The notes: generated by a model not told the origin, from the letters alone. Shown: positions 14,406 to 28,240, counted from the stretch's first letter. The stretch is 64,000 nt of DNA from Candidatus Atabeyarchaeum deiterrae (GCA_037310415.1 CP147780.1:1152001-1216000), one strand, 5' to 3'. Numbers and translations: made by a program.

Positions 14406-15902
14406 TTGAGCCGGAAAGACTCGGTTCTAAGCAAATCAAGCAATCAGGAACTCTTGGGGCTTGCCGAAATAGCGTCGGGAATTCCGATCGGCGGCAAAAC
14501 TAGCAGGGAGACTCTGATTAAGATAATCAAGTACTCCATGAGTATCGAAGAAATAAAGAAGAGAACCAGAGAAATCGGAACGAGATCGCGACATTCTGCA
14601 AATCTGAGGGGCAGAAAACTTCTAGCAGTCTTCTTTGTATCAGCGATTGTGTATAGTAGCCTCTTTATTGGTGCAACTCTGATTTTCAGCGATCTGAGTC
14701 TGAAATATGCAGTAGTGACACCAGCTGAAGAGGAGTGGAGCATTGCATTCGGAAGGACCTACGTATTCTCGGCAGTCACTGCACAGCAGGCTCATGACGG
14801 TGGATTCGTCGTAACCGGAACCGTGAGGAATGAGGAAGGATCAACTGATGCTTTTCTTTTAAGGTTGAATTCGATCGGCGCTGTCCAGTTGAACAAGACA
14901 TATGGAGGACACGATTTCGTCGGCGGATCATTCGCCAAGGAGACATCTGACGGCGGTTATCTCGTAGGAGGTTACACAAATTCCCTCTATGGCAATTGCA
15001 GTCGTGCCTGGCTTGTGAAGACAGACTCAGGAGGGAACATCCGTTGGAATGTGACACTTGGCACAGGAGAAGAATACTATACCAAGTACGCCACTGAGAC
15101 GTCTGACGGCGGGTACGTCGCGATAGGATATGGGTTCGCGTATGGAACAGGAGACATTAGCAATCGCAGTCGCGTCTGGTTTGCCGAGATAAATGCAACT
15201 GGAGAATACCAGTGGGGTCGCTCTTATAGAGTAACCTATGGGGTGCATTCCGCAATGCAGACGTCGGATGGGGGATACATAATCGTCGGAACGGAAATGG
15301 ACGGTCCCTGTCTTCTAAAAATAGATACTGGTGGCAACGTCGAACTCAACATGATATACGCCAACGTCGGATACGAGATATACTCGGTTCATCAAACTTA
15401 TGATGGAGGATACGTCCTTGCAGGAGCCACATTGTCCCAGGCTTGGATTGTCAAAACGGATCCACATGGAAACATTCAATGGGGCAAAACATATGGGGCG
15501 AGTGGAACTGCGCGGGCTCTCTCTGCACTACAAACATTTGATGGAGGATACATCATGGCTGGACACATACACTCGCAGGGTGATGCCGGGAATAGCGCGT
15601 TGCTTATCAAGATGGATCCAGATGGAAACATTCAGTGGAGCAAGACGTATGGGGGAAGTGGAACTGCGTGGGCTTCCTCTGTTCTGCAGATTTCCACCAA
15701 TAGATACGTCGTGGCGGGCGGAGCGGAATCGTCCGATGGAAACACCACTGTATGGATCGCCGAGCTAGCAGTACAGTCACAACCAGTCGGCGCGGCCATG
15801 TTCCTCGTCGTATTTGGTTGCATAACTACACTGTTTGCCAGCTCTCTTATACTTTTGTGGAGAAGAGCGCACATGAAGCAATTCAAAAGAAAGGCTTATT
15901 GA
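14406..15902 (+). CDS. Double-pass membrane protein: N-terminal HeH/LEM-like helical module, TM, ~7-bladed beta-propeller (QTxDGGY repeats), TM
   Basis: About 7 repeats W..TYG..QTSDGGY..AG..W.VK.D..GN; two hydrophobic helices flanked by basic residues; N-terminus 26/51 identical to that of 25748..27001. Confidence 0.8.
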   Translation: MSRKDSVLSKSSNQELLGLAEIASGIPIGGKTSRETLIKIIKYSMSIEEIKKRTREIGTRSRHSANLRGRKLLAVFFVSAIVYSSLFIGATLIFSDLSLKYAVVTPAEEEWSIAFGRTYVFSAVTAQQAHDGGFVVTGTVRNEEGSTDAFLLRLNSIGAVQLNKTYGGHDFVGGSFAKETSDGGYLVGGYTNSLYGNCSRAWLVKTDSGGNIRWNVTLGTGEEYYTKYATETSDGGYVAIGYGFAYGTGDISNRSRVWFAEINATGEYQWGRSYRVTYGVHSAMQTSDGGYIIVGTEMDGPCLLKIDTGGNVELNMIYANVGYEIYSVHQTYDGGYVLAGATLSQAWIVKTDPHGNIQWGKTYGASGTARALSALQTFDGGYIMAGHIHSQGDAGNSALLIKMDPDGNIQWSKTYGGSGTAWASSVLQISTNRYVVAGGAESSDGNTTVWIAELAVQSQPVGAAMFLVVFGCITTLFASSLILLWRRAHMKQFKRKAY

Positions 15903-15977
15903 AGAGCATTTTCCGATAGGATTTAGTACAGCTGTCTTGTTGAAGTCTTCCTGCAACTTTTTCGATCCAGCAAACGA

Positions 15978-16742
15978 TCAGGATCCGATGAACATCAGAA
16001 TCACATTGTTGAAATGCTCTGGCTTTTCGAGCATATTCACATGCCCCGCATCAGGAATGATTTCGAGCTTCGATCCCTTGATGTTCTCGTGCAGGAAATC
16101 TGCCATTGACTGAGTGATGAGTAAATCGTCGGCCCCCCGAATTATCAACGTTGGAATCTTTATGTTCTTTAGTTTTGCACTGAAGTCTACTCCACTCACT
16201 GCTTCATAATCTTGGGCGCCAACCTTAGGATCAGTCTCCAAGTCCTGCTCAACATGCAACTTCACTACGACAGGATTGGCTTTGACAGTCTTTTTGGAGA
16301 ACGACATCGGGGTAAGTTGCTTGACGGCAAACTCATACTGATTACGGTAGAGATCCAGCGCTACCTGAGGGACAAGAATCTTAGCCGCGCTATCGACTAC
16401 AACCAGCTTTTCCAGGAGTTCTGGGTGCTTTAGGCACAACTGTTGAACTACAAGTCCGCCCATCGAGATGCCCACCAGAGTGGCTTTGTCAAGTCCGATT
16501 ACCTTCATGAAACTGGCAACATGGTCAGCGAAACGCTCAATGGTTTGCCTACCTTCAAGTTGCTCTGACTTCCCGTGTCCAGGCAGATCGAGCACTATCA
16601 CCCTGAGTCTATTCGAAAGTCCGGAAAGCTGATTGTCCCATATGCGACGGTCACTCCCTGCACCATGGACGAAGAGCACCGGTTTGCCTTTTCCTTTTGA
16701 ATCGTAATAGGTTTTCAATCCATCAACGTCTGCGAAGGGCAT
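15978..16742 (-). CDS. Alpha/beta-fold hydrolase
   Basis: HGAG, DLPGHG, GISMGG, GADD, AGH; paralogue of 763..1557. Confidence 0.9.
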   Translation of the reverse strand: MPFADVDGLKTYYDSKGKGKPVLFVHGAGSDRRIWDNQLSGLSNRLRVIVLDLPGHGKSEQLEGRQTIERFADHVASFMKVIGLDKATLVGISMGGLVVQQLCLKHPELLEKLVVVDSAAKILVPQVALDLYRNQYEFAVKQLTPMSFSKKTVKANPVVVKLHVEQDLETDPKVGAQDYEAVSGVDFSAKLKNIKIPTLIIRGADDLLITQSMADFLHENIKGSKLEIIPDAGHVNMLEKPEHFNNVILMFIGS

Positions 16743-16876
16743 TTTCAACTCACATCTCAAATTCAATTGGAATTATCTAGTCAATCACTCTGCTCTTAAT
16801 CCTAACTGTTCTCTGCAATGGTTCCTGTGCTAGATGTCTGCACCAACTCAGCACTATGAGCTAGGAAGCTTGCAGA

Positions 16877-18094
16877 TCATTTGAACAGTTTCTCCACTTT
16901 CTCTTTGAAGGTTGTAGGGCAGTTTTCCTCTCTGTATAGGATTTGAAGAAGTTGCTCGATTTTTCCTGCTTCCTTGGCGCGTTTCCATGCATCGGAAATC
17001 AGTCTCTCACCCTCGTAGTAGGTGAACAGGTATGCCCGTAAGAGCGGATCCAGTACAAAACGCATACCTAGCTCTGATTCCTTTTTCTCGTAAGCCCCTT
17101 CCTCTGTGAAGTACTCCTTGGTTTGCTCTAAATCGAGTCGTTTGTCATAGACCATTAACGCAGTATTGACTCTGACTGCACGCCTGAACTTCATTTCAAG
17201 GTCTTCTATCCTATCTTCAGCCATCGATGGTTCCCCAAGAATGAATTTTCTCGAGGTTTCAGCCAATCCTTCAGACATGGTGCATTCAGGAGTGTTGACG
17301 AGAAGAATTGATGATTCCAATTGCTTCTTGCCTAAGTAGAGTTCCATTTCCTTGAGAACGTGCTCGGTATGGTGCCCTGGATATGATTGATGTGTAACAT
17401 GAAGTGGCAACGATGACGAAGTGACAGGCATCTGAATGTTCAGTTCTACGAGTGATTTGTAGTTCCCTAGATATCTGTTGTCTGAGGTCCACGGTCTGTC
17501 TTTGAGTATGCTTAGCTCGACTCGTTCACCAGCAGGAAGATTGAACGATTTCATAGTTTCGTATCGGGCTTCAGTAAGCAAGTTATAGAACAGGTCAACC
17601 AGTCTCTCTCCTGAGATCAGCCTTTTCTTCTTGGATTCGAGAAGCATCTCAGTCAGATTGCCGTGGTACCCCTTCTTCTTTAGCAGAGTCTCCAGCTGTG
17701 TTCTAAGTTCAGATATCTCCTGCTCTTTCACGTCCTTTGGCTCGATATCGAGAGTGCTGCTCACATACTCGCGGTATGGAGCTGTGACACCCATTTTCTC
17801 TCTTGTTGTTGCCTGCAGCGCTTTTACCTGTTTCAACAGAAAAGTTTTCCTCATCTCGTCTATCTGAGCCGAAACAATCTCTTTCTTGAGCTCTTCGAAA
17901 TCTAGGAAGATTTCACCAAGCGGTCGCGAGTGCTCTTTATCCACTTTTTCAATCAATTCCATTGGACCGTAGTAGGAGTCGACAAGATCATTCACATGTC
18001 TGCCAAGTCTCAGACACGCGATCAGATATTTCGAAGAGAAATCGACCGACAAAGCCCCTTGCACCTTCGGCAAGATCAAGGGGGTGAAGAGCAT
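16877..18094 (-). CDS. DUF885-like zincin-fold protein with HQxxPGHH variant motif
   Basis: HQSYPGHHTEH and SEGLAE resemble the HExxPGHH...EGxA motifs; YLFTYYEG. Start uncertain. Confidence 0.6.
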   Translation of the reverse strand: MLFTPLILPKVQGALSVDFSSKYLIACLRLGRHVNDLVDSYYGPMELIEKVDKEHSRPLGEIFLDFEELKKEIVSAQIDEMRKTFLLKQVKALQATTREKMGVTAPYREYVSSTLDIEPKDVKEQEISELRTQLETLLKKKGYHGNLTEMLLESKKKRLISGERLVDLFYNLLTEARYETMKSFNLPAGERVELSILKDRPWTSDNRYLGNYKSLVELNIQMPVTSSSLPLHVTHQSYPGHHTEHVLKEMELYLGKKQLESSILLVNTPECTMSEGLAETSRKFILGEPSMAEDRIEDLEMKFRRAVRVNTALMVYDKRLDLEQTKEYFTEEGAYEKKESELGMRFVLDPLLRAYLFTYYEGERLISDAWKRAKEAGKIEQLLQILYREENCPTTFKEKVEKLFK

Positions 18095-18307
18095 ACGTCT
18101 CTATATAAGAACTCTTCCCAATGCAATGGCGTTCTTTCCATAATTCGTCGATATAATACCTAGCTTTTCAAATTGTGGTTCAAAGTTGGTCAACGTCTCA
18201 TAATCCTTAATAGTTCAGGGATGAGGATCTTAAACAGTCACTACGACGTATGCTCAAAGTCTGCGATTCTCAGTTCTGTGGGTAAAAGTAGAAAGGAAGT
18301 AAGATTC

Positions 18308-20788
18308 ATGCCGAGTAAAACCCCTGATGAGAATCAGGTGGCCAGACTCAGCGTTGTGGCGGATGGAGTCATTGAGGCTTCAAACAGTTGGGAAGTCCTA
18401 AAATTCGATCTTACCACAGGAAAGTTCAGCCTCTATCTGAAGGGTAGAAAGTCTGTTCATGTGCGAGGTGCTTTTGCACGCCTGATCCTGCGTGATGGTG
18501 ATCGGATACAAACAATTGACAAGTGGGCTGAGCGAACATGGGAGAAAGTTGAAAGTGCCAATAGCAGGAGGAGAGGAAAAGAAGCTAGTTTCACTGTCAT
18601 CTGCAAGGGCTCGGCCAACAAGAAGTTGGGGGACTCCATGCTCAAGCTTTCAGTAGAGGTCTTTGCTGACACGCCGATAGTTCTCCTTCGACTTGAGCTC
18701 GAGAATGGCAGCGGCAAACCACTAAACATAAGGGAATTCCAACCCTTAGTCATCCAAAGTGAAACGGGGGGTTCCTGGGATCTGGGTTCAGGCATCAAGA
18801 ACTGGCGGTTACTGAAAAACGGCTACCAGACCTCCAGTCCCTGTTACTCTCTCACTCTCACCGAGCTAGACAAGACGTGTTCAGTCGAACTCTTCAGAAC
18901 CAACTACAACCCTCGCTCAAAATACAACGCCGTTAATGGCGAGTTTGACAGTGAGTGGATGACCGCTTTCAGGGATAACACAACAGGGAATTCTGCAGTA
19001 ATCGGCTTTGTTACCATGAAAGATAATATGAGTCAAATTGACTTCAAGGTGGACGAAAAGGAGACCAAGATAATTGGTCTGCAGGCAAGGTCAGTCTCCG
19101 ACAACATCCTCTGCGACAATGACAAGAGCATTCAGTCCGAGAAACTGCTCCTGGACCTGCAAGGTCCATTATCCGATGGACTTGATCGCTACGCTGACTG
19201 GGTAGCGTCAGAAATGGATGCTATACCCTGGAAGAAAGTTCTAACAGGATGGTGTTCCTGGTACGAATTCTTTGAGAAGATCTCCGAAGAACTGATCTTG
19301 AACGTAATAGACTATTATCGCAAAAATCGCGACAGATATCCAATCGACTACATCCAAGTAGATGATGGCTACTTTAATCACAGGGGCGATTGGACAATTC
19401 CCAGCGACTTGTTCCCACATGGAATGAAATTCATCGCCGACAAAATCAAGGAAGCAGGATTCAAGCCTGGCATATGGCTATCTCCATTCCAGATAAGCGG
19501 AGGATCCAAGATCTTTCAGCAACATCCTGACTGGACTATTAGAGACGAGAAAGGCAATCCCATTGGACATGAATTTGATAGCTCGTTGAAGTACAGTTAC
19601 TACGGCTTGGACTGTACGAACCCTGCTGTCATTGACTGGGTCAAGTCTCTCTTTCGAACAATAACCAAAGAATGGGGTTACGAGTATGTCAAGATCGATT
19701 TCCTCTTCGCAGCAACATTCGATGGTCTGAGGCATGACAAGAACGCCACGAGAGCCCAGGCTTTGAGAAGAGGCTTGGAGGCGATTAGAGAGGCGGTCGG
19801 AGCCAAGGTCCCTGTACTGGGGTGCCTCGCGCCACTTGGACAAGCTATTGGGTTGGTCAACTCGTACCGCGTCTCACCTGACACAGCAACAAGATGGAAA
19901 GCCCCGTGGCCATATGAATGCGGTCCAGCCATGCGTGACACAATGAGAAACACAATTCTTCGATATTTTATGCACAACAGATTTTGGGCAAACGACCCTG
20001 ACTGCGTTATTGCTAGGAGAGGGAAAGATAGATCAGAGTTTTCAAAAGCGGCCGAAATAGAATATCTGTCCAAGGGTGGGACAATAAGCGAAGATGAAGT
20101 CAAGTTCGAAATGACTGTGCTAGCTCTTCTGGGTGGTCCGCTCATCTACTCAGATGATCCTATTCACCTATCACCCGAAAGAGAGAGATATCTGCCCCTG
20201 ATTCTCCCACCATGCCAAGGTAAGGCTAGAATTATCGACCTACTTGAATCAGCTTTACCAAGAATCCTTAACTTGAAGTTTCATGAAGACTACGATAGCT
20301 GGGATCTTGTGGGTCTGCTAAACTGGGATGATTCTCCCGAAGATGCTCAAGTTGATTTCTCAAGGCTGGGATTAAAGAAAGGTGAATACTATCATGTTTA
20401 CAGTTTCTGGGATGAAAAGTACCTTGGCAAAATCAAAGACGTAGTCACAGTGGAGAAGATCCCTGCTCACTCAGCAAGCTTACTCTCAATTCGAAAAGTG
20501 CAGAACAGACCTCAACTCGTTTCCTCAACCATGCACACGACACAAGGAGCAGCCGAAGTTGAAAACGTTACATGGAAAGACAAGGAGAAAACACTTGAGA
20601 TCAAACTGAGACATCCTGGAACAAGAAGCGGAAAGCTCATTGTGCACTTCCCTTCACCATTCAAGTTCAACTCAGTTCTTACCAAGGATGCTAAAGCAAA
20701 TATCAACAGGACCAGCATCGATGGCCCAATATTGACCATCGACTTGACTTTCAAACAATCAGCCGTTGTAATAGTCGGATTCAATTAG
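18308..20788 (+). CDS. Alpha-galactosidase (GH36)
   Basis: GWCSWY, QVDDGY, FPHGMK, PGIWLSPF, YVKIDF, RVSPD, NDPDC; adjacent to a galactokinase. Confidence 0.88.
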   Translation: MPSKTPDENQVARLSVVADGVIEASNSWEVLKFDLTTGKFSLYLKGRKSVHVRGAFARLILRDGDRIQTIDKWAERTWEKVESANSRRRGKEASFTVICKGSANKKLGDSMLKLSVEVFADTPIVLLRLELENGSGKPLNIREFQPLVIQSETGGSWDLGSGIKNWRLLKNGYQTSSPCYSLTLTELDKTCSVELFRTNYNPRSKYNAVNGEFDSEWMTAFRDNTTGNSAVIGFVTMKDNMSQIDFKVDEKETKIIGLQARSVSDNILCDNDKSIQSEKLLLDLQGPLSDGLDRYADWVASEMDAIPWKKVLTGWCSWYEFFEKISEELILNVIDYYRKNRDRYPIDYIQVDDGYFNHRGDWTIPSDLFPHGMKFIADKIKEAGFKPGIWLSPFQISGGSKIFQQHPDWTIRDEKGNPIGHEFDSSLKYSYYGLDCTNPAVIDWVKSLFRTITKEWGYEYVKIDFLFAATFDGLRHDKNATRAQALRRGLEAIREAVGAKVPVLGCLAPLGQAIGLVNSYRVSPDTATRWKAPWPYECGPAMRDTMRNTILRYFMHNRFWANDPDCVIARRGKDRSEFSKAAEIEYLSKGGTISEDEVKFEMTVLALLGGPLIYSDDPIHLSPERERYLPLILPPCQGKARIIDLLESALPRILNLKFHEDYDSWDLVGLLNWDDSPEDAQVDFSRLGLKKGEYYHVYSFWDEKYLGKIKDVVTVEKIPAHSASLLSIRKVQNRPQLVSSTMHTTQGAAEVENVTWKDKEKTLEIKLRHPGTRSGKLIVHFPSPFKFNSVLTKDAKANINRTSIDGPILTIDLTFKQSAVVIVGFN

Positions 20789-20843
20789 ACATATCCATCG
20801 AGAGTCGTGAACTGCAAGTCGTCCAGAGTCGCGCTTCGCTAGG

Positions 20844-22169
20844 TTGATGGTCAACGTGGTAAACTCTTTCAATCGGACTCGCTCTATATTCGCTGCGTCC
20901 GCACCTGGAAGAGCTGACTTCCTAAACACACATCAAGATTACAAGGGGCTACCAGTCGTTCCTGTAGCCTTAGATCTTCGGACTTATATTGTCGCCTCGA
21001 GAACCAACTCACCCGGCATCGTCGAAGTTGTCTCAATGAACCTCAAAGAGAGAGGGGAGAGATTTGAAGACACGTTTGCAATCCAGGATCCTCAGTACTC
21101 CAGGAAGGGATTCTTCGGAAACTATCTCAGAGCGGTAGCAAAAGTAGCCTTATCTTCCGGAAACGGGAAAAGGGCAGTTCAAGAAAAGAACTTTGGTCTG
21201 CACGTCACGATAGAAAGTGAGGTTCCTTTATCCGCGGGATTGGCCAGTAGTGCGGCTCTTGAAGTTGCATTCGCCAAGTTACTGGATACCATCTACCGCA
21301 TTGGACTTGACAAAAAAAGTGTAGCTGAGGCTGCTTACAGGGCTGAGAACGTCGAGCTCGGCATACCATGTGGGCGGCTCGATCAATACGGCTCATCTTT
21401 TGGCGGGATAATACTCCTCGAATGCAAGTTCCCCTACAGAGTCAAACCCATCCCGTTCAAGAGACTATGCTTTGTTGTGGCCGATTCGGGCATAAGACAC
21501 TCGACTGCGGAGATACATCCTCTGAGGCAGTCCGACCTGAACCGTGGATTAGAGCAACTCGTGGAGAACAAATCAGTTCCAAAGAAACTGAAGGCGAATC
21601 TCGGGTTGCACTACAGCGAGGCAAATTGGATAAGACTTTCAGAGGAAGAACTTACACCTTACATCTCAACAATAGAAGAGGTGGCTAAAAAGCGCATCCT
21701 ATTCACTCTTAGAATGCAGAGATCAACAGAGATAGCGTTGAAAGCGATGAAGAAACAACTGAGAGTGAAAAGCATTCTTGAAGAGGCTGAAAAGGTTCCT
21801 GGGATTTCCGAGTTTCTCTCAGGGACAATTGCTGGTAGGTCTAACTCGAGGCTGAAAATACTAGGGCAAGTAATGAACTACCAGCATTCTCTACTTCGAG
21901 ATCTCTATGATGTTAGTCTTCCTGAACTTGAAAAGACCAAGGACGCAATGTTGAAAAATGGGGCTTATGGAGCAAAAATCTCAGGTGCAGGTCTGGGAGG
22001 GAGTCTGATAGGTTTGGTCGACGACAGCAAAAGTGGTCAACGAACGCTCAACGCTGCCCTAGATGCAGGCGCAAAACAGGGATGGGTATCAAGTGTCGGC
22101 GAAGGAGCAAGAATTGAAAATGCCAATCGCAGCAAAATCCGAAAGATCATCAAACTGGAATCAAACTAG
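20844..22169 (+). CDS. galK: Galactokinase-like GHMP kinase
   Basis: SAPGRADFLNTHQDY, PLSAGLASSAA, CGRLDQ, GAKISGAGLGG. Confidence 0.8.
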   Translation: MMVNVVNSFNRTRSIFAASAPGRADFLNTHQDYKGLPVVPVALDLRTYIVASRTNSPGIVEVVSMNLKERGERFEDTFAIQDPQYSRKGFFGNYLRAVAKVALSSGNGKRAVQEKNFGLHVTIESEVPLSAGLASSAALEVAFAKLLDTIYRIGLDKKSVAEAAYRAENVELGIPCGRLDQYGSSFGGIILLECKFPYRVKPIPFKRLCFVVADSGIRHSTAEIHPLRQSDLNRGLEQLVENKSVPKKLKANLGLHYSEANWIRLSEEELTPYISTIEEVAKKRILFTLRMQRSTEIALKAMKKQLRVKSILEEAEKVPGISEFLSGTIAGRSNSRLKILGQVMNYQHSLLRDLYDVSLPELEKTKDAMLKNGAYGAKISGAGLGGSLIGLVDDSKSGQRTLNAALDAGAKQGWVSSVGEGARIENANRSKIRKIIKLESN

Positions 22170-22443
22170 TTCCCCCCCCTCATAACCGTCCCATCCAAGT
22201 AGACAAACACCATCATTTGCATCGTGTATCTACAAGAAGCATGGAGCATCTTTTCACCCTTGGGAAGCCAAGTGCATTTTAGGAGTCCGCGCCAAGACTA
22301 TCCAGAGGAGGGAAACAGTCAGGAAGATCCATGTGGCTCGAACCGCAGAAGGCTGGAGGCAGGCCCCGGGATCTGAGGCGAGGAGTCTGCTTGGAACAAG
22401 GGAAGAAGGGACGACGATCGTATACACCAGATGCGTCTATTCT

Positions 22444-22599
22444 TCAACTCCTTCGCATCTCCTCCGCGGTGAGAATGACTCTCACGTAGAGTACTCCTCC
22501 GCAGTCAGGACAGCTGTGAACCAACTTCCCAAAGTGGTCCCCTCTGCTCCATGCCCACCCATCCACAAGCTCACAAACAAAACACTCAACAGAACTCAC
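22444..22599 (-). CDS. Putative 51-aa CxxC-CxxC zinc-finger protein
   Basis: GTG at 22599 gives MSSVECFVC...HSCPDCGGVLY; the longer ORF-track version looks non-coding upstream. Confidence 0.45.
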   Translation of the reverse strand: MSSVECFVCELVDGWAWSRGDHFGKLVHSCPDCGGVLYVRVILTAEEMRRS

Positions 22600-22833
22600 C
22601 GTCTCAACCCGACCTTCTTTGCATAATTTAGCTATCAAAGAACCCCTAAATCCAACAGAACAACTTCTTAGACAACGCCACGGAAATATAGGGGTACAAG
22701 ACGAAATAGCAAAAAACAAGTCTTCCAATATACTTTTATATCGCTCTTGTCCCAGTAAAGAGTTGCAGTTGAGGAAGGATGTGAGGAGGGAACTGCCTTA
22801 GGTCCCCTTTCAAAGGGGAAACCATGTTTTGGA

Positions 22834-25164
22834 ATGAAAAGTCCGATCGGCACTCAAAGGATTTTGCGCCATCACCTCATATGCGTATGCCTGATCATGA
22901 CTTTCATTATCACATCTTCGCAATATGCCGTTGCCTCAATGCATTCTACTACCCCGACAATCAACACTCCAATCGACAAGAATTCCCCTACTTCCGCCTA
23001 CGGCACTAGCTTCCCCTCACAACAACACCCGGAATCAGTTTGCCCGTCGCCACCCGACGCTCAATATCAGCATATTCGAAGCGCTGACTGGGACGAGTGG
23101 AGATACAACAACGGGACACGCGTGAGGAACATCTACCTCGCACCACGCTACGTCTTCAACCCTCTGAACAACTCCTGGTGCGACTGGCTCCTAGCAAGAA
23201 ACGGGACAGGAATCAGCGTAGCCACAAGTAGAGTGTGCGCATACATAGAGCCAGATGCGATCACCCTCTACACGCAAGACTACGCAGAAGCCGTTGCGAC
23301 GGCACAGCTAGACTGGCCAGCACTTACCTTGTCCAGCAACCCATCTTTATCTGTGAAGCAGAACTCCTCAGGCGTGTATGTAACCGAGAGTTATCCCTCG
23401 TCAAGTGAAGTGAGGGCATCTGTCAACGTCACCTATAGCTTTCTCCCAGGTTCCCCCTTGAAAATAGGATTCCTCGTTAGATGGATGAGCGACACTCCTT
23501 GTAGTGGGCTTCAGATCAATTGGAGAATCTCGTTAGCCAGAGATGGCTACTACACATACGGGGGAAACCTGGCAGGCATCGCCTCTCAAACAAGCGAGGT
23601 GAAGCAACTACTCGCACCGTCAACCAGAACAAATAGCTACCTCGCAATACAATTCTACGACTATAATTGCAGCCAAAGTGATGGTGCCAACAGAAACCTG
23701 TCTAAGTACTTCCTGATGGGAGTGGATTGGAGTGACGCGAAGGGTTCCACCATTCAAGCAGCATTGAACCCAATGGATAGGAGCTTCAAACTAACGTTTG
23801 GAAACTTCACCCTCAACAGAGGCGAAATTACGCTCATAGATCCCACGGTGACGACCCTCCTCGGTTCAGGCGGTGATTCCACTATAGACTCAAGTTCTCC
23901 TGACAGTAATAACGGCTTCGGTTCATCTGCGAGCATCATGGCTTTGCTAACCCGTGATGATTACTACACAGCTAAAATAATCATTTGTAGATTTTACATG
24001 AAGTTTTCGCTGCAAAGTCTCCCCCTGTACTCATCAATATCCTCTGCAAAGATATGCTTGTTTCTCTACGCGACATCGAGTACTGCAAGGTACATCGCTG
24101 CCCACAATGTTCAGAACAATAATTGGAACGAGAATTCAATATATTGGAATGATTGCAACGATCCAGGGGACCCGTATTACTACAATTCCACACCCACATC
24201 AACAATTTCAGTGGGCACAGCAACGCAAAAGTACTACAATTGGAGCGTAACCAGCGATGCCAGGAACGGGTTACTATATGATCAAGGGAAGGCGTTCAGT
24301 GAGTGTTTCAAATACACAGACGAGTCTAATGCTCCAGTTGCACCCAACAGCATCCACAAAAACTTCATAAGCAAAGATGGCGGCTCCCATCTGCCGATCC
24401 TGAGTGTGACCTACACCTACAAGGCGTACGCCGTGCTGATAGGCTCAGGTGGAGACGCGTTAGGCAATTATGCTCGGTTCTATAATGACCTCATGTTTAT
24501 GTACGACACACTCAAGAGCTACTGCTCGTATACTGATTCAGAAATCTACGTTCTATACGCGGACGGCAACACTCCCAGCAGCAATAACTGTTATGATCCA
24601 GGCAATGCGGTTCCTCACGTGAACGTGATAGACTACAATGCGACGAAGGCGGCTCTGCGAACAGTCTTCGCAGACCTAGCTTCGAAATCGGATAACCAGA
24701 CCTTCATTCTAATCTTCATGACGGGACACGGAGACCACACGGAACAAGAATCCTACACAGTAAGCTTCTCGACTTGGGGACAATATATCTGGGATTATGA
24801 ATTTGCAAATGCCACCTACCTCGGCAGGATCACATCGTACGACGCAGAGTGCATCGTCATGGAGCAATGCTACAGCGGAGGGTTCACAATCGACCTCCAG
24901 AATGGCAAGAGGATAATATACACGGCAGTAGATCACAAATCTCCGTCCCATTCCGGTTCTCACAATGGGCACGAGTATGATGAGTTTGCCTACTGGTTCA
25001 CGGATGGTCTGATTCACGGGGACAGGCCCCCCTACGACGGGATCATTAAACTTCATGAAGCGTGGGATTACGCCAACTCTAACGACACACTCGATCGTCC
25101 TGGACCACTGTTTTGGCCACAGAATGGTTTCGACCTTCTCTTCACAGCATGCGGGAGAATCTAA
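22834..25164 (+). CDS. Secreted multidomain protein: beta-rich N-domain, DNRLRE-like domain, C-terminal caspase/legumain-type (clan CD, C13-like) peptidase
   Basis: Signal-like N-terminus; IDPT boundary then DSTID..PDSN.G / WNENSIYWN; YAVLIG, TGHG (His) and EQCYSGGF (Cys) dyad. Confidence 0.75.
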   Translation: MKSPIGTQRILRHHLICVCLIMTFIITSSQYAVASMHSTTPTINTPIDKNSPTSAYGTSFPSQQHPESVCPSPPDAQYQHIRSADWDEWRYNNGTRVRNIYLAPRYVFNPLNNSWCDWLLARNGTGISVATSRVCAYIEPDAITLYTQDYAEAVATAQLDWPALTLSSNPSLSVKQNSSGVYVTESYPSSSEVRASVNVTYSFLPGSPLKIGFLVRWMSDTPCSGLQINWRISLARDGYYTYGGNLAGIASQTSEVKQLLAPSTRTNSYLAIQFYDYNCSQSDGANRNLSKYFLMGVDWSDAKGSTIQAALNPMDRSFKLTFGNFTLNRGEITLIDPTVTTLLGSGGDSTIDSSSPDSNNGFGSSASIMALLTRDDYYTAKIIICRFYMKFSLQSLPLYSSISSAKICLFLYATSSTARYIAAHNVQNNNWNENSIYWNDCNDPGDPYYYNSTPTSTISVGTATQKYYNWSVTSDARNGLLYDQGKAFSECFKYTDESNAPVAPNSIHKNFISKDGGSHLPILSVTYTYKAYAVLIGSGGDALGNYARFYNDLMFMYDTLKSYCSYTDSEIYVLYADGNTPSSNNCYDPGNAVPHVNVIDYNATKAALRTVFADLASKSDNQTFILIFMTGHGDHTEQESYTVSFSTWGQYIWDYEFANATYLGRITSYDAECIVMEQCYSGGFTIDLQNGKRIIYTAVDHKSPSHSGSHNGHEYDEFAYWFTDGLIHGDRPPYDGIIKLHEAWDYANSNDTLDRPGPLFWPQNGFDLLFTACGRI

Positions 25165-25747
25165 CATTTTCTTGCTAGGAAACAGTCGAGACAATATGAT
25201 GTATGTCCAATGACCTTGTCCTTTCAAGTGCAGAGGAAACGAGTAGGAGGCATGAATCACTGGTTGCCACGAGCCAAAGATATCGTAGCCAGTGACCATA
25301 AGGCAATGAGTCAAATCGATTTCACTAACAATCTCAAGAATACAAGGATCCTAATGCTGATAATTCAACGCGCTGATTTTCTACTCTCCGCTTTGCCCAT
25401 GGTGCAGTGCGTCCGAGATGAGCGTAGTCCAAGCTCAAGGCAGTCAATAATGCTTGGCATGTGAACATGGTTGAGAAGCCTAAGACCCTCGATGAAGTGA
25501 CTCTTGGATTTGCTGGAGTCTGATAATCTGCTATGGCGTCCCAAGGAAAGCTGTATCATCCAGCTTCGAACAGCGCACGAGTTCCAATCTTGCTGACTCA
25601 TGAGACATGGCATTTCCTCTTGCGTCCGAGAGAACCCGATAATGAAAACATGACGTTGTGCTTCCCATGCAACAAGATATTTGTATACGTTCACCTAAAG
25701 TCTACTCAGAATGACCAATATGCTTGGTTGGACGGGGGAAAGCTTGA

Positions 25748-27001
25748 GTGGGTCGAAAAGAGCAGTTCCTGAGAAAACTGGAGGACGATGAACTCCTCGA
25801 GTTAGCCAAGATCGCATCACAGACACCAGTCACAGACCGAACGAGCAGAAAAGACCTGCTCAAAATAGTCAAATCATCATTCAGCATAGACGAAATGAAG
25901 GGGAAGACCTGGCAGGCGAGGGAAGCGATCTGGAACCGCCGCAGGCAAAGAAAATCCATCGAGCTTACTCTCACCAAAACTGAGACATCCAGCAAAGTCG
26001 ACGGCAGGAATCTCCCAAGATTAGCTGGCTCGACTTCAGAGATCCCTCCCGGCGGCAGAACAGGTAGGAGTGTGGTGTCGGGGATCGCTGAGCGGTCCCT
26101 CAGCATTGAGGAGAGAAATTCGAAAGCTAAGCAGATTCGCGCAAGAGAGAATAGAAGAACGAAGACGGTAAACCCGTTCCGCACCAGACGACCATTGCTG
26201 ATCTCTGTTGCAGCAATCACAATTGCAGCCACGCTCTTCATGAGTTGGCTGGCGGCTACAATGCCCCCACCACAAGCAGCCTGGAACAAGACGTATGGTG
26301 GAACTGGATACGATGCTGCGCGTTCCGTTCAGCAGACTTCAGATGGCGGGTATATCCTGGCGGGTTACACGTCTTCCTTTGGCGCCGGTGGCTATGACTT
26401 TTGGCTTGTGAAGACTGATGGTAGCGGGAACCAGCAGTGGAACAAAACGTATGGTGGAGCCAGCGATGACGGGGCGCGTTCCGTTCAGCAGACTTCAGAT
26501 GGCGGGTACGTCGTGGCGGGTTACACAACTTCCTTTGGCGCCGGTGGCTATGACTTTTGGCTTGTGAAGACTGATGGTAGCGGGAACCAGCAGTGGAACA
26601 AAACGTATGGTGGAACCGGATACGATTCAGCGCAATCCGTTCAGCAGACTTCAGATGGCGGGTATGTCATGGCAGGAGGCACATTTCTCTCTGGTGCCAG
26701 CTTCGCCGATTTCTGCCTTGTGAAGACTGATGGTAGCGGGAACCAGCAGTGGAATAAGACGTATGGCGGAGCCGTTCACGATTCAGCGTATTCCGTTCAG
26801 CAGACCAGTGATGGCGGGTACATTGTGGCGGGGCTCACGTGGTCCTTCGGTGCTGGTGGTGATGACTTCTGGCTTGTGAAGACTTACGGAGAGAACGGAG
26901 CTGTAGAAAGGACCGCGGTGATTTTCGTCGTAGGCACGGTTGCAGCGGCGGCTTGCATCATTCTCGGTGCTTGGTGGGATGATAAGCAGCGGGCAATATG
27001 A
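25748..27001 (+). CDS. Double-pass membrane protein: two HeH/LEM-like modules, TM, four 52-aa propeller blades, TM
   Basis: Paralogue of 14406..15902; repeats WNKTYGG..QQTSDGGY..FWLVKTDGSGNQQ; two hydrophobic helices. Confidence 0.8.
   Translation: MGRKEQFLRKLEDDELLELAKIASQTPVTDRTSRKDLLKIVKSSFSIDEMKGKTWQAREAIWNRRRQRKSIELTLTKTETSSKVDGRNLPRLAGSTSEIPPGGRTGRSVVSGIAERSLSIEERNSKAKQIRARENRRTKTVNPFRTRRPLLISVAAITIAATLFMSWLAATMPPPQAAWNKTYGGTGYDAARSVQQTSDGGYILAGYTSSFGAGGYDFWLVKTDGSGNQQWNKTYGGASDDGARSVQQTSDGGYVVAGYTTSFGAGGYDFWLVKTDGSGNQQWNKTYGGTGYDSAQSVQQTSDGGYVMAGGTFLSGASFADFCLVKTDGSGNQQWNKTYGGAVHDSAYSVQQTSDGGYIVAGLTWSFGAGGDDFWLVKTYGENGAVERTAVIFVVGTVAAAACIILGAWWDDKQRAI
26282..26885 (+). repeat. Four intragenic 156-bp tandem repeats
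   Basis: Units start at 26282, 26438, 26594 and 26750 and share long identical stretches such as CTTGTGAAGACTGATGGTAGCGGGAACCAGCAGTGGAA. Confidence 0.95.
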
Positions 27002-27334: not shown

Positions 27335-28240
27335 TCAGGGCCCTGAATCCTCTGGCTCGCAAAGCAGCTTGACTTTATCCTCCGGAGCAGTTAATGAACC
27401 AGAGAATATTAGTTGGAGTGTGAATCTATCGATGGACTTCGGCTTTCTGCTTAGACAATTATCTATGTAAAGAAGAGCCACGTGAAGTCTCCCCAGATCA
27501 GGGATCGTATTCGATTTCTGAATTGCCTCCATCAAGAACTTAACCCAGTCTGAGAAGTGTTGATGGAGAAACCGCTTAAACAGTACGCTTATTGACACCT
27601 TTCTATCAGATGAAAACTCTTCAACAGGATACCCTGGATCTTTCTTCTCATCAAACCCTATCAAGGACTTCCCATTGACGGTAACATTAATAGCTCTAAT
27701 GTAGTTTAGATCATCCGAGTAGCCACGCGGAAGAGTTCGTGTCTTTTCTATGGCATCCTCTTCTCTCTTCACCTGTTTGCGGACTGTCTCCTGTTCAGAC
27801 TTGATCAAGCTATCTAGAACCAACTCGAAGTTCCTGAAATCTATCGTTGAAGCGGTTTTGTCATTCTTAGCTCGCTCCCCATACATTGCTCTGAAAACTT
27901 CACTAATTCTTCTCAACGTTCTGTCCATCACTTTTTCATCATCACTCTTGTCTCCCGCCAGAACGAAAATGAGGTTCCCAAACTCTCGGACCTGCAGCTT
28001 CACATCCTCAGTTGAAAGAGAATACGAAGAACCTATGCGCGCAATCTTCTTGAATTCTCCACTGCTTGTACTTAGCTCTCCCAGAAATGATGTCAGGGCG
28101 CTCATGTAACCAGAGAAGAGCTCATTGCCAACATCGTGTTCTCTATAGTAGCTAAAGACTGACATCCCTGAGTCCCTTGCAATGACCCATAATCCACGGA
28201 TATGGTGCTGGGATTGGGTTGTTTCGGTTGGGCTGGGCAT
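27335..28240 (-). CDS. Longin-like domain protein with unknown C-terminal domain
   Basis: IRGLWVIARDSG.SVF, LFSGYMSALTSFLGEL, LIFVLAG, LRRISEVFRAMY, FRNF: the pattern of Asgard longin-like domains. Confidence 0.7.
   Translation of the reverse strand: MPSPTETTQSQHHIRGLWVIARDSGMSVFSYYREHDVGNELFSGYMSALTSFLGELSTSSGEFKKIARIGSSYSLSTEDVKLQVREFGNLIFVLAGDKSDDEKVMDRTLRRISEVFRAMYGERAKNDKTASTIDFRNFELVLDSLIKSEQETVRKQVKREEDAIEKTRTLPRGYSDDLNYIRAINVTVNGKSLIGFDEKKDPGYPVEEFSSDRKVSISVLFKRFLHQHFSDWVKFLMEAIQKSNTIPDLGRLHVALLYIDNCLSRKPKSIDRFTLQLIFSGSLTAPEDKVKLLCEPEDSGP

Follow-up and report, generated by a model that had tools for sequence, protein, structure and literature searches.

Two genes in a 64,000-nt stretch of Candidatus Atabeyarchaeum deiterrae DNA (the window, to which all positions refer) encode membrane proteins that share an N-terminal domain of about 60 amino acids, here called the module. 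In gene 1 (P0001) and gene 2 (P0002) it stands before a predicted transmembrane (TM) segment and an ectodomain of the beta-propeller type. Shuffling has brought the module to one or the other terminus of at least five unrelated membrane scaffolds, and the propeller is one of several cargoes. From profile alignments and structure models the module is concluded to be a divergent, lineage-specific member of the HeH superfamily (SAP/Rho_N/HeH/LEM; Pfam clan CL0306), closest to the Rho_N type and not specifically LEM-like. It might act as a handle through which different membrane proteins are docked to a shared ligand inside the cell.

Module copies, host proteins and distribution

The N-termini of gene 1 and gene 2 align without gaps with 26 of 54 positions identical (BLASTP, E 1e-14), which confirms the shared module noted in an earlier reading of this DNA (the original prediction); it comprises ~55-60 amino acids. 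That reading also proposed a further, degenerate copy in gene 2. This copy (residues ~74-134) is identical to the gene 1 module at 20 of 52 positions (E 9e-7), and it was recovered with an independent profile built, in order to avoid circularity, from 48 module copies from other genomes and metagenomes and none from the window genome. The scores were 68.3 bits for gene 1, 70.7 bits for gene 2 copy 1 and 27.8 bits for copy 2 (E 3e-6 against all 32,219 six-frame open reading frames (ORFs) of the genome). The second copy is real but degenerate. The ratio of nonsynonymous to synonymous substitution rates (dN/dS) between gene 2 and its paralogue P0003 is 0.48 for copy 1 and 0.54 for copy 2, which with the few sites available means no more than that the copies are not obviously decaying.

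The start codons of both genes, TTG in gene 1 and GTG in gene 2, are credible because the equivalent position is an ATG in many homologues (e.g. MSKKDE, MSQKDD, MGRKDE) and because public gene calls and the ESM Atlas record have the same starts.

A six-frame search of the window genome found four module-bearing genes, namely gene 1, gene 2, P0003 and P0004, and the independent profile had no further match among the 32,219 ORFs. P0003, closely paralogous to gene 2, has two modules and about eight blades. P0004 (280 amino acids) has a module followed by a six-helix polytopic domain and is without a propeller. In a full-length model of P0004 (predicted local distance difference test (pLDDT) 82.6) the module helices are as in the model of the isolated module. 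Foldseek searches of PDB and the Atlas with the six-helix domain rendered only generic helical-bundle or DUF matches (DUF308, DUF998, DUF4386; TMEM45A with E 0.16) and no functional lead.

A profile search of 1.84 billion representative proteins gave 51 matches at E<=1e-3 and 17 at E<=1e-10, and architectures were read from the sequences of the profile matches together with the ORFs of two sister genomes. The host of the module is a membrane protein in 49 of the 53 members examined. The commonest context is the N-terminus of a six-helix polytopic family; N-terminal modules are also found on proteins with a propeller between two TM segments, where they are sometimes in tandem, and on two other small families with 3-4 TM segments. 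In type-I proteins the module is located at the extreme C-terminus, after a signal peptide, an ectodomain, a TM segment and an Arg/Lys stop-transfer patch; some of these proteins have a propeller as ectodomain, others an unrelated beta-rich domain without Pfam match. Tandem duplication of the module is recurrent. The several scaffolds and the tandem copies bear out the earlier view of an independent, mobile and duplicating domain, and the fusion to an external propeller is real, but the presence of the module on many non-propeller membrane proteins and at C-termini had been overlooked. A word-indexed homologue search among longer proteins with a six-copy profile returned only the window genome's own proteins, and a single-protein scan of genome contigs found no relative.

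Short forms of the module were also observed. One locus (L013, G001:C1:2803332-2806508) has a module-bearing ORF of 105 amino acids without TM helix, also seen as P0045, and stand-alone modules of 59 and 56 amino acids are found in P0018 and P0032 respectively. Soluble versions of the handle, fragments of genes and decaying copies are all possible explanations.

With a profile of 54 copies the module was found in all three genomes of the family to which the window belongs (Atabeyarchaeia), in 6, ~10 and 4 copies. Among ~396 other Asgard genomes from 32 families there was no module save for one match of 21.8 bits; many of the searched genomes are incomplete and the negative result is therefore to be read as not found in those searched. 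The module is thus essentially restricted to one Asgard family. The survey of partner domains proposed with the original prediction did reveal many membrane proteins with the module, but these are confined to Atabeyarchaeia, and a Pfam scan of 50 family members gave no known partner domain beyond weak propeller families.

The single match in another Asgard family (L048, G343:C37:19819-22923; ORF at locus positions 1411-2409) is an ABC-transporter ATPase with an N-terminal HeH-like segment. An archaeal (Bathyarchaeota) ABC_tran cluster was also the top neighbour when the module model was used for a shape search in the Atlas (TM-score 0.66). Membrane-associated ATPases with HeH-like caps may be more widespread in archaea.

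No prior description was found in the literature on Asgard or prokaryotic HeH/LEM/SAP membrane proteins, and the Atabeyarchaeia genome paper has no mention of SAP domains, LEM or propellers (PMC11291895). As far as could be searched, both the domain family and the architecture are undescribed.

Fold, relatives and predicted topology

AlphaFold2 was run on the 54-copy alignment and gave a model of the module with the order helix, helix, extended loop, helix, helix (pLDDT 87.8, predicted TM-score (pTM) 0.70). The second helix, the loop and the third helix form the helix-extension-helix core that had been expected, and one further helix flanks it on each side (residues in Table 1).

Structure comparisons point to the HeH class from several directions. 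The ESMFold model of residues 1-62 in the ESM Atlas, which is independent of AlphaFold2, has Rho/Rho_N clusters as neighbours (TM-score 0.72-0.77), and the AlphaFold2 model found Rho_N, SAP and FAN1_HTH clusters in the Atlas. With the module, Foldseek had no PDB match at E<1. In an exhaustive VIA-align comparison with 48,161 chains the top was taken by the SAP domain of FAN1 (residues 462-535) with Z 6.2 and rmsd 2.8 over 55 aligned residues, followed by the SAP domains of PIAS1 (Z 5.2) and rice Siz1 (5.1), Rho residues 1-48 (4.8) and the yeast Siz1 SAP domain (4.7). A second structural comparison gave Z 6.5 for FAN1, 4.5 for Rho and 2.6 for the SAP domain of DEK. The match to the LEM domain of emerin (6ghd_H) was weak (Z 3.6, rmsd 2.6, 41 of 43 residues aligned, 24% identity). 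All these Z-scores are below 8, a range that the tool marks as weak when the units are small and helical, and the structural argument is therefore the convergence on one fold class and no single score. PDB sequence matches to designed repeat proteins and alphabodies were rejected as spurious, being short low-complexity stretches.

At the level of single profiles the relationship is not visible. The isolated module had no Pfam match at E<=1, the 50 family members had no match to Rho_N (E<=0.01), SAP, HeH or LEM, and the HMMs for SAP (PF02037), HeH (PF12949), Rho_N (PF07498) and LEM (PF03020) found nothing in the module or in the genome at E<=0.1. The module family is missed by current Pfam models. 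Pfam-detectable relatives are present in other Asgard families: 32 of 151 genomes have Rho_N, 20 of 201 have SAP and 29 of 201 have HeH. A template of 30 Rho_N-hit segments from other Asgard genomes, mostly the N-termini of soluble proteins of ~315 amino acids, aligned with the module in register over 52 columns (hhalign probability 85.8, P 5.4e-6, score 29.6). As controls, 200 column-shuffled templates averaged 8.5 and did not exceed 14.6; the reversed template reached 10.4. The alignments with Asgard SAP segments (P 1.7e-3, probability 15.6) and HeH-hit segments (P 8.7e-4, probability 23.4) were also in register but weak. The HeH/LEM/SAP-like character given to the module in the original prediction thus holds for the HeH/SAP/Rho_N class at the fold and profile-profile level. 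The LEM-specific pattern is unsupported or weakened: the LEM HMM is negative, emerin is matched only at the Z-score given above, no BAF or MSC domain was found, and the nearest relatives are of the Rho_N type.

The closest detectable relative is the conserved family of soluble Asgard proteins of ~315 amino acids. These have an N-terminal Rho_N domain and a 'SLxEEExKEL' helix, while the rest has only weak DUF7326/DUF6892 matches, and they were found in 22 of 25 sampled genomes of one Asgard family (loci L018-L044, from family f9 and others). Three loci in other Asgard genomes (L026, L046 and L047) encode CheW-like proteins with a C-terminal Rho_N/HeH domain; here, too, an HeH domain is joined to a component of a membrane-associated array. 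TM segments indicated in Rho_N proteins of other Asgard families were false, being hydrophobic strands of CheW-like domains.

Both genes have the basic linker, TM1, repeat ectodomain, TM2 and short tail that were noted before (Table 1). The flank of the TM segment on the module side has on average 3.69 Lys/Arg compared with 0.65 on the far side in the 49 members with a TM segment. The module side is the richer one in 44 of these 49, for N-terminal and C-terminal modules alike, and three flank exceptions include cases with a weak first helix missed by the threshold. The flank charges of gene 2 resemble the pattern in gene 1. The tether between module and TM segment is short, typically 6-25 residues with a median of ~12. 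The C-terminal forms begin with a signal peptide and have the ectodomain outside, so the module is placed inside independently of the N-terminal forms. The TM positions and positive-inside flanks support a cytoplasmic location for the module and both termini of gene 1 and gene 2, by prediction and in line with the earlier proposal. Taken jointly, fold class and topology are very likely to be correct.

TM1 was also considered as a classical cleaved Sec signal peptide, the alternative by which the proposed architecture would fail. The core of such a peptide should fall within ~30 residues of the N-terminus; TM1 begins at residue 72 in gene 1 and at residue 150 in gene 2, after folded domains, which does not suit this alternative. 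Cleavage after TM1 is still compatible with the computations.

Possible ligands and roles of the module

The existence and fold class of the domain family, the cytoplasmic position of the module next to the membrane, its mobility and tandem duplication and its confinement to one Asgard family are all results of computation. Because the module is reused on unrelated cargoes, the simplest reading is a common cytoplasmic handle that would dock unrelated membrane proteins to one shared intracellular ligand, and some docking role of this kind is probable. The likeliest ligand would be a nucleic acid, either nucleoid DNA or RNA, bound without sequence specificity via K4, R34, K39 and K42 and the basic linker, in the manner of SAP/HeH/Rho_N domains. 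Positions K4, R34 and K42 are near-invariantly basic and position 39 is mostly so. Nucleic acid is favoured because of the fold class, the nearest relatives, these basic positions and the adjoining linker. Gene 1 and gene 2 would then couple an external propeller, which might bind a ligand or a cell surface, to the nucleoid or to RNA at the inner face of the membrane. As a whole, a handle that docks to a shared and most likely nucleic acid ligand is plausible but falls somewhat short of being probable, and the nucleic acid, judged separately, is a tentative choice.

Several results weigh against this reading. The module is only weakly basic, with a mean net charge of +1.4 (range -4 to +7), and has many conserved acidic positions (E5/E6, D/E36, E48 and E49), so that a protein partner is about as plausible as a nucleic acid. 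Domains of the HeH class also bind proteins; LEM binds BAF and the SAP domain of PIAS1 binds p53. No recurring neighbour or partner gene was found in the window, around P0004 or on two metagenomic contigs, where the surrounding genes are unrelated metabolic genes. The negative SAP, HeH, Rho_N and LEM searches and the low structural Z-scores described above belong here as well. A homodimer prediction for the module scored 0.01 (mark 0.42), which is evidence neither way.

The same architectural evidence would be expected if the module binds one shared cytoplasmic protein, for example of the cytoskeleton, of the sorting or vesicle machinery or of chromatin, and thereby gathers or positions membrane proteins without any nucleic acid. 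The near-neutral charge, the strongly conserved acidic positions and the protein binders within the HeH class fit such protein docking, and the lineage-specific distribution would fit co-evolution with a lineage-specific partner. However, no candidate partner was identified and no neighbouring gene is conserved, and the closest sequence relatives are of the Rho_N type, usually taken as nucleic-acid binders. Protein docking is a serious alternative, though on balance a rather unlikely one.

The module might instead need no ligand and serve as a structural or topogenic cap that sets the orientation of the neighbouring helix, makes the protein more stable or tags it for quality control or turnover. 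It is always juxtamembrane, with a short tether and a positive-inside flank, and its most conserved polar residues include helix caps (S12/D13, T32/S33 and S46-x-E-E) and are thus structural rather than obviously ligand-binding. On the other hand, positive-inside charges alone are normally enough for topology, and C-terminal modules come after a TM segment that is already oriented. The near-invariant, surface-type K4, R34 and K42 and the recurrent tandem duplication are also hard to explain without a ligand, which makes a pure cap improbable.

A membrane-bound one-component regulator of the ToxR type, which would control transcription from the membrane with the propeller as ligand sensor and the HeH domain as a binder of specific promoter DNA, is very improbable. 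The putative DNA-binding N-terminus, basic linker, TM segment and external sensor-like domain do mirror ToxR/CadC, but the same module is found on polytopic bundles and at C-termini with unrelated ectodomains, Pfam scans gave no OmpR-type winged helix or other HTH family, and there is no conserved adjacent target operon. HeH/SAP/Rho_N domains are not known as sequence-specific regulators.

Least probable of all is a direct forerunner, by homology, of the eukaryotic LEM2/MAN1/Heh inner-nuclear-membrane proteins. The Asgard host, the fold class, the N-terminal position and the extracytoplasmic domain between two TM segments, with N- and C-terminus both facing the DNA, would suit it, but the module was found in three of three genomes of one family and in essentially none of the ~396 other Asgard genomes searched. 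The window genome has no MSC domain, no match to the LEM HMM and no BAF above the cut-off, and the closest profile relatives of the module are soluble Rho_N-type proteins.

If the preferred handle binds DNA or chromatin proteins, a set of Atabeyarchaeia membrane proteins would be wired to the nucleoid through one reusable element. An Asgard lineage would then independently have reached the design of the inner nuclear membrane, in which a membrane protein with two passes carries an HeH domain. It is unlikely that the module truly binds the nucleoid or chromatin and that its hosts are the first prokaryotic HeH-fold tethers between membrane and chromosome, an analogue of LEM2/MAN1/Heh arisen independently that would connect surface receptors or propellers straight to DNA at the membrane. 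Even with a protein ligand, one cytoplasmic tag on propellers, unknown ectodomains and polytopic bundles would point to a sorting or scaffolding system, as yet undescribed, in a group of uncultured Asgard archaea. The present results weaken the eukaryogenesis angle, but the handle hypothesis is cheap to test. The question is directly testable in vitro because the domain has ~60 amino acids, is confidently predicted (pLDDT as above) and should express easily.

Gene features, surroundings and known systems

The features of the two genes are listed in Table 1. The region between positions 14406 and 27001, originally presented as one feature, is not one locus. Gene 1 and gene 2 are dispersed paralogues with unrelated metabolic genes between them, and the genes between and around the pair encode alpha/beta hydrolases, an enoyl-CoA hydratase, a melibiase-type glycosidase, a galactokinase-like GHMP kinase and a secreted CBM96 protein.

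Table 1. Features of gene 1 and gene 2, with positions in the window and the basis of each assignment
Feature	Position	Strand	Basis
Gene 1 (P0001), 498 aa, TTG start: HeH-like module, basic linker, TM1, beta-propeller, TM2, basic tail	14406..15902	+	ORF list, translation, TM/charge analysis
Gene 1 module, residues 1-60: helices 3-9 and 13-24, extended loop 25-33, helices 34-44 and 47-60	14406..14585	+	AlphaFold2, independent profile, fold matches
Gene 1 basic juxtamembrane linker, residues 61-71; 5 Lys/Arg in the 15 residues preceding TM1	14586..14618	+	Charge analysis
Gene 1 TM1, residues 72-94, predicted signal-anchor, N-terminus inside	14619..14687	+	Kyte-Doolittle 2.25; Lys/Arg 5 before vs 1 after
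Gene 1 external SBBP/DUF5122-type beta-propeller, residues ~100-460	14703..15785	+	ESM Atlas features 0.93, structure TM-score 0.86-0.90
Gene 1 TM2, residues 466-484	15801..15857	+	Kyte-Doolittle 2.41
Gene 1 predicted cytoplasmic basic tail, 14 aa, 6 Lys/Arg	15858..15899	+	Charge analysis
Gene 2 (P0002), 417 aa, GTG start: two modules, basic linker, TM1, ~four propeller blades, TM2, short tail	25748..27001	+	ORF list, translation, TM/charge analysis
Gene 2 module copy 1, residues 1-60	25748..25927	+	Independent profile (70.7 bits); BLASTP to gene 1 (E 1e-14)
Gene 2 degenerate second module copy, residues 74-134, with a Pro in helix 2	25967..26149	+	Independent profile (27.8 bits, E 3e-6); BLASTP (E 9e-7)
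Gene 2 basic juxtamembrane linker, residues 135-149, 6 Lys/Arg	26150..26194	+	Charge analysis
Gene 2 TM1, residues 150-172	26195..26263	+	TM analysis
Gene 2 propeller blades: 3.9 tandem copies of a 156-nt (52-aa) unit, 81% matches	26282..26884	+	Tandem Repeats Finder
Gene 2 TM2, residues 390-408	26915..26971	+	TM analysis
Gene 2 short C-terminal tail, 9 aa	26972..26998	+	TM analysis

The ectodomain of gene 1 has the fold of an SBBP/DUF5122-type beta-propeller, matched over ~350 residues in the Atlas with the scores in Table 1. The Pfam DUF5122 model recognised the propeller at E 0.0074 only, under the cut-off. Blades of the propeller ectodomain are repeated units of ~47-52 amino acids, and their number appears to vary: the 3.9 units of gene 2 compare with about eight in P0003 and about seven to eight in gene 1. 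The four-blade chain of gene 2 between two TM segments may need pairing with a second chain in order to close a propeller, and the blades seem to have been amplified or homogenised recently.

The CBM96 protein (22834-25164, plus strand) is secreted, has 776 amino acids and contains a carbohydrate-binding module. His (..GHGDH..) and Cys (..QCYSGGF..) motifs in the C-terminal region recall peptidases of the caspase fold (legumain/clostripain-like), but no Pfam peptidase family was detected in the protein. Two ORFs on the minus strand, 16877-18094 (405 amino acids) and 27335-28240 (301 amino acids), have no Pfam match at E<=0.001.

The window genome encodes a full-length actin (454 bits to Pfam Actin), in accordance with the Asgard origin that had been considered probable, which can now be given more precisely as Atabeyarchaeia. 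Two complete Atabeyarchaeia genomes of 2,756,679 bp and 2,808,651 bp have been obtained from wetland soil (PMC11291895). The window DNA is present in sequencing runs of wetland, freshwater-sediment and soil metagenomes, and no RNA run is listed among those with this DNA.

Among known domains, Rho_N (PF07498) has the same helix-extended loop-helix core, a conserved basic residue that starts the second helix and a following 'S-L-x-E-E-E' helix. The Pfam HMM for Rho_N misses the module, however, and the Asgard Rho_N proteins examined are soluble whereas the module is part of a membrane protein in nearly every member and is confined to Atabeyarchaeia. The best matches among solved structures are the four-helix SAP domains (FAN1 462-535, PIAS1 1-65 and the N-termini of Siz1/SIZ1), with which the whole unit superposes; for FAN1, 55-60 residues are aligned at Z 6.2-6.5. 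In contrast to these, the module has no Pfam SAP match, and FAN1, PIAS1 and Siz1 are nuclear and soluble proteins.

LEM2, MAN1 and Heh1-Heh2 also combine an N-terminal HeH-fold domain with two TM segments flanking an extracytoplasmic (lumenal) domain and have both termini on the DNA side, an arrangement that for gene 1 and gene 2 is a prediction. The HEH domains of Lem2/Man1 anchor chromatin to the membrane, overexpressed HEH has a compacting effect in S. pombe, and the C-terminal MSC winged helix is one of the defining features of the MSC family (PMC3337167). Gene 1 and gene 2 have no such winged helix after TM2, only tails of 14 and 9 amino acids, and their extracytoplasmic part is a large beta-propeller. 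The MSC domain (PF09402) was not found in the window genome, and BAF (PF02961) gave only a 16-bit match there, under the 25-bit cut-off and similar to sub-cut-off matches in archaeal control genomes. Because of the lack of MSC, the different ectodomain, the negative LEM and BAF results and the narrow distribution, the resemblance is one of fold and topology only and direct ancestry is unlikely.

ToxR and CadC are bitopic bacterial membrane-bound DNA-binding receptors. They resemble the present proteins in having a cytoplasmic N-terminal domain, here putatively nucleic-acid-binding, a TM segment and an external sensor-like domain in one chain. They differ in that their cytoplasmic domain is an OmpR winged helix and not an HeH fold, whereas the module studied here is accompanied by a second TM segment in gene 1 and gene 2, has C-terminal variants and is carried by polytopic cargoes as well.

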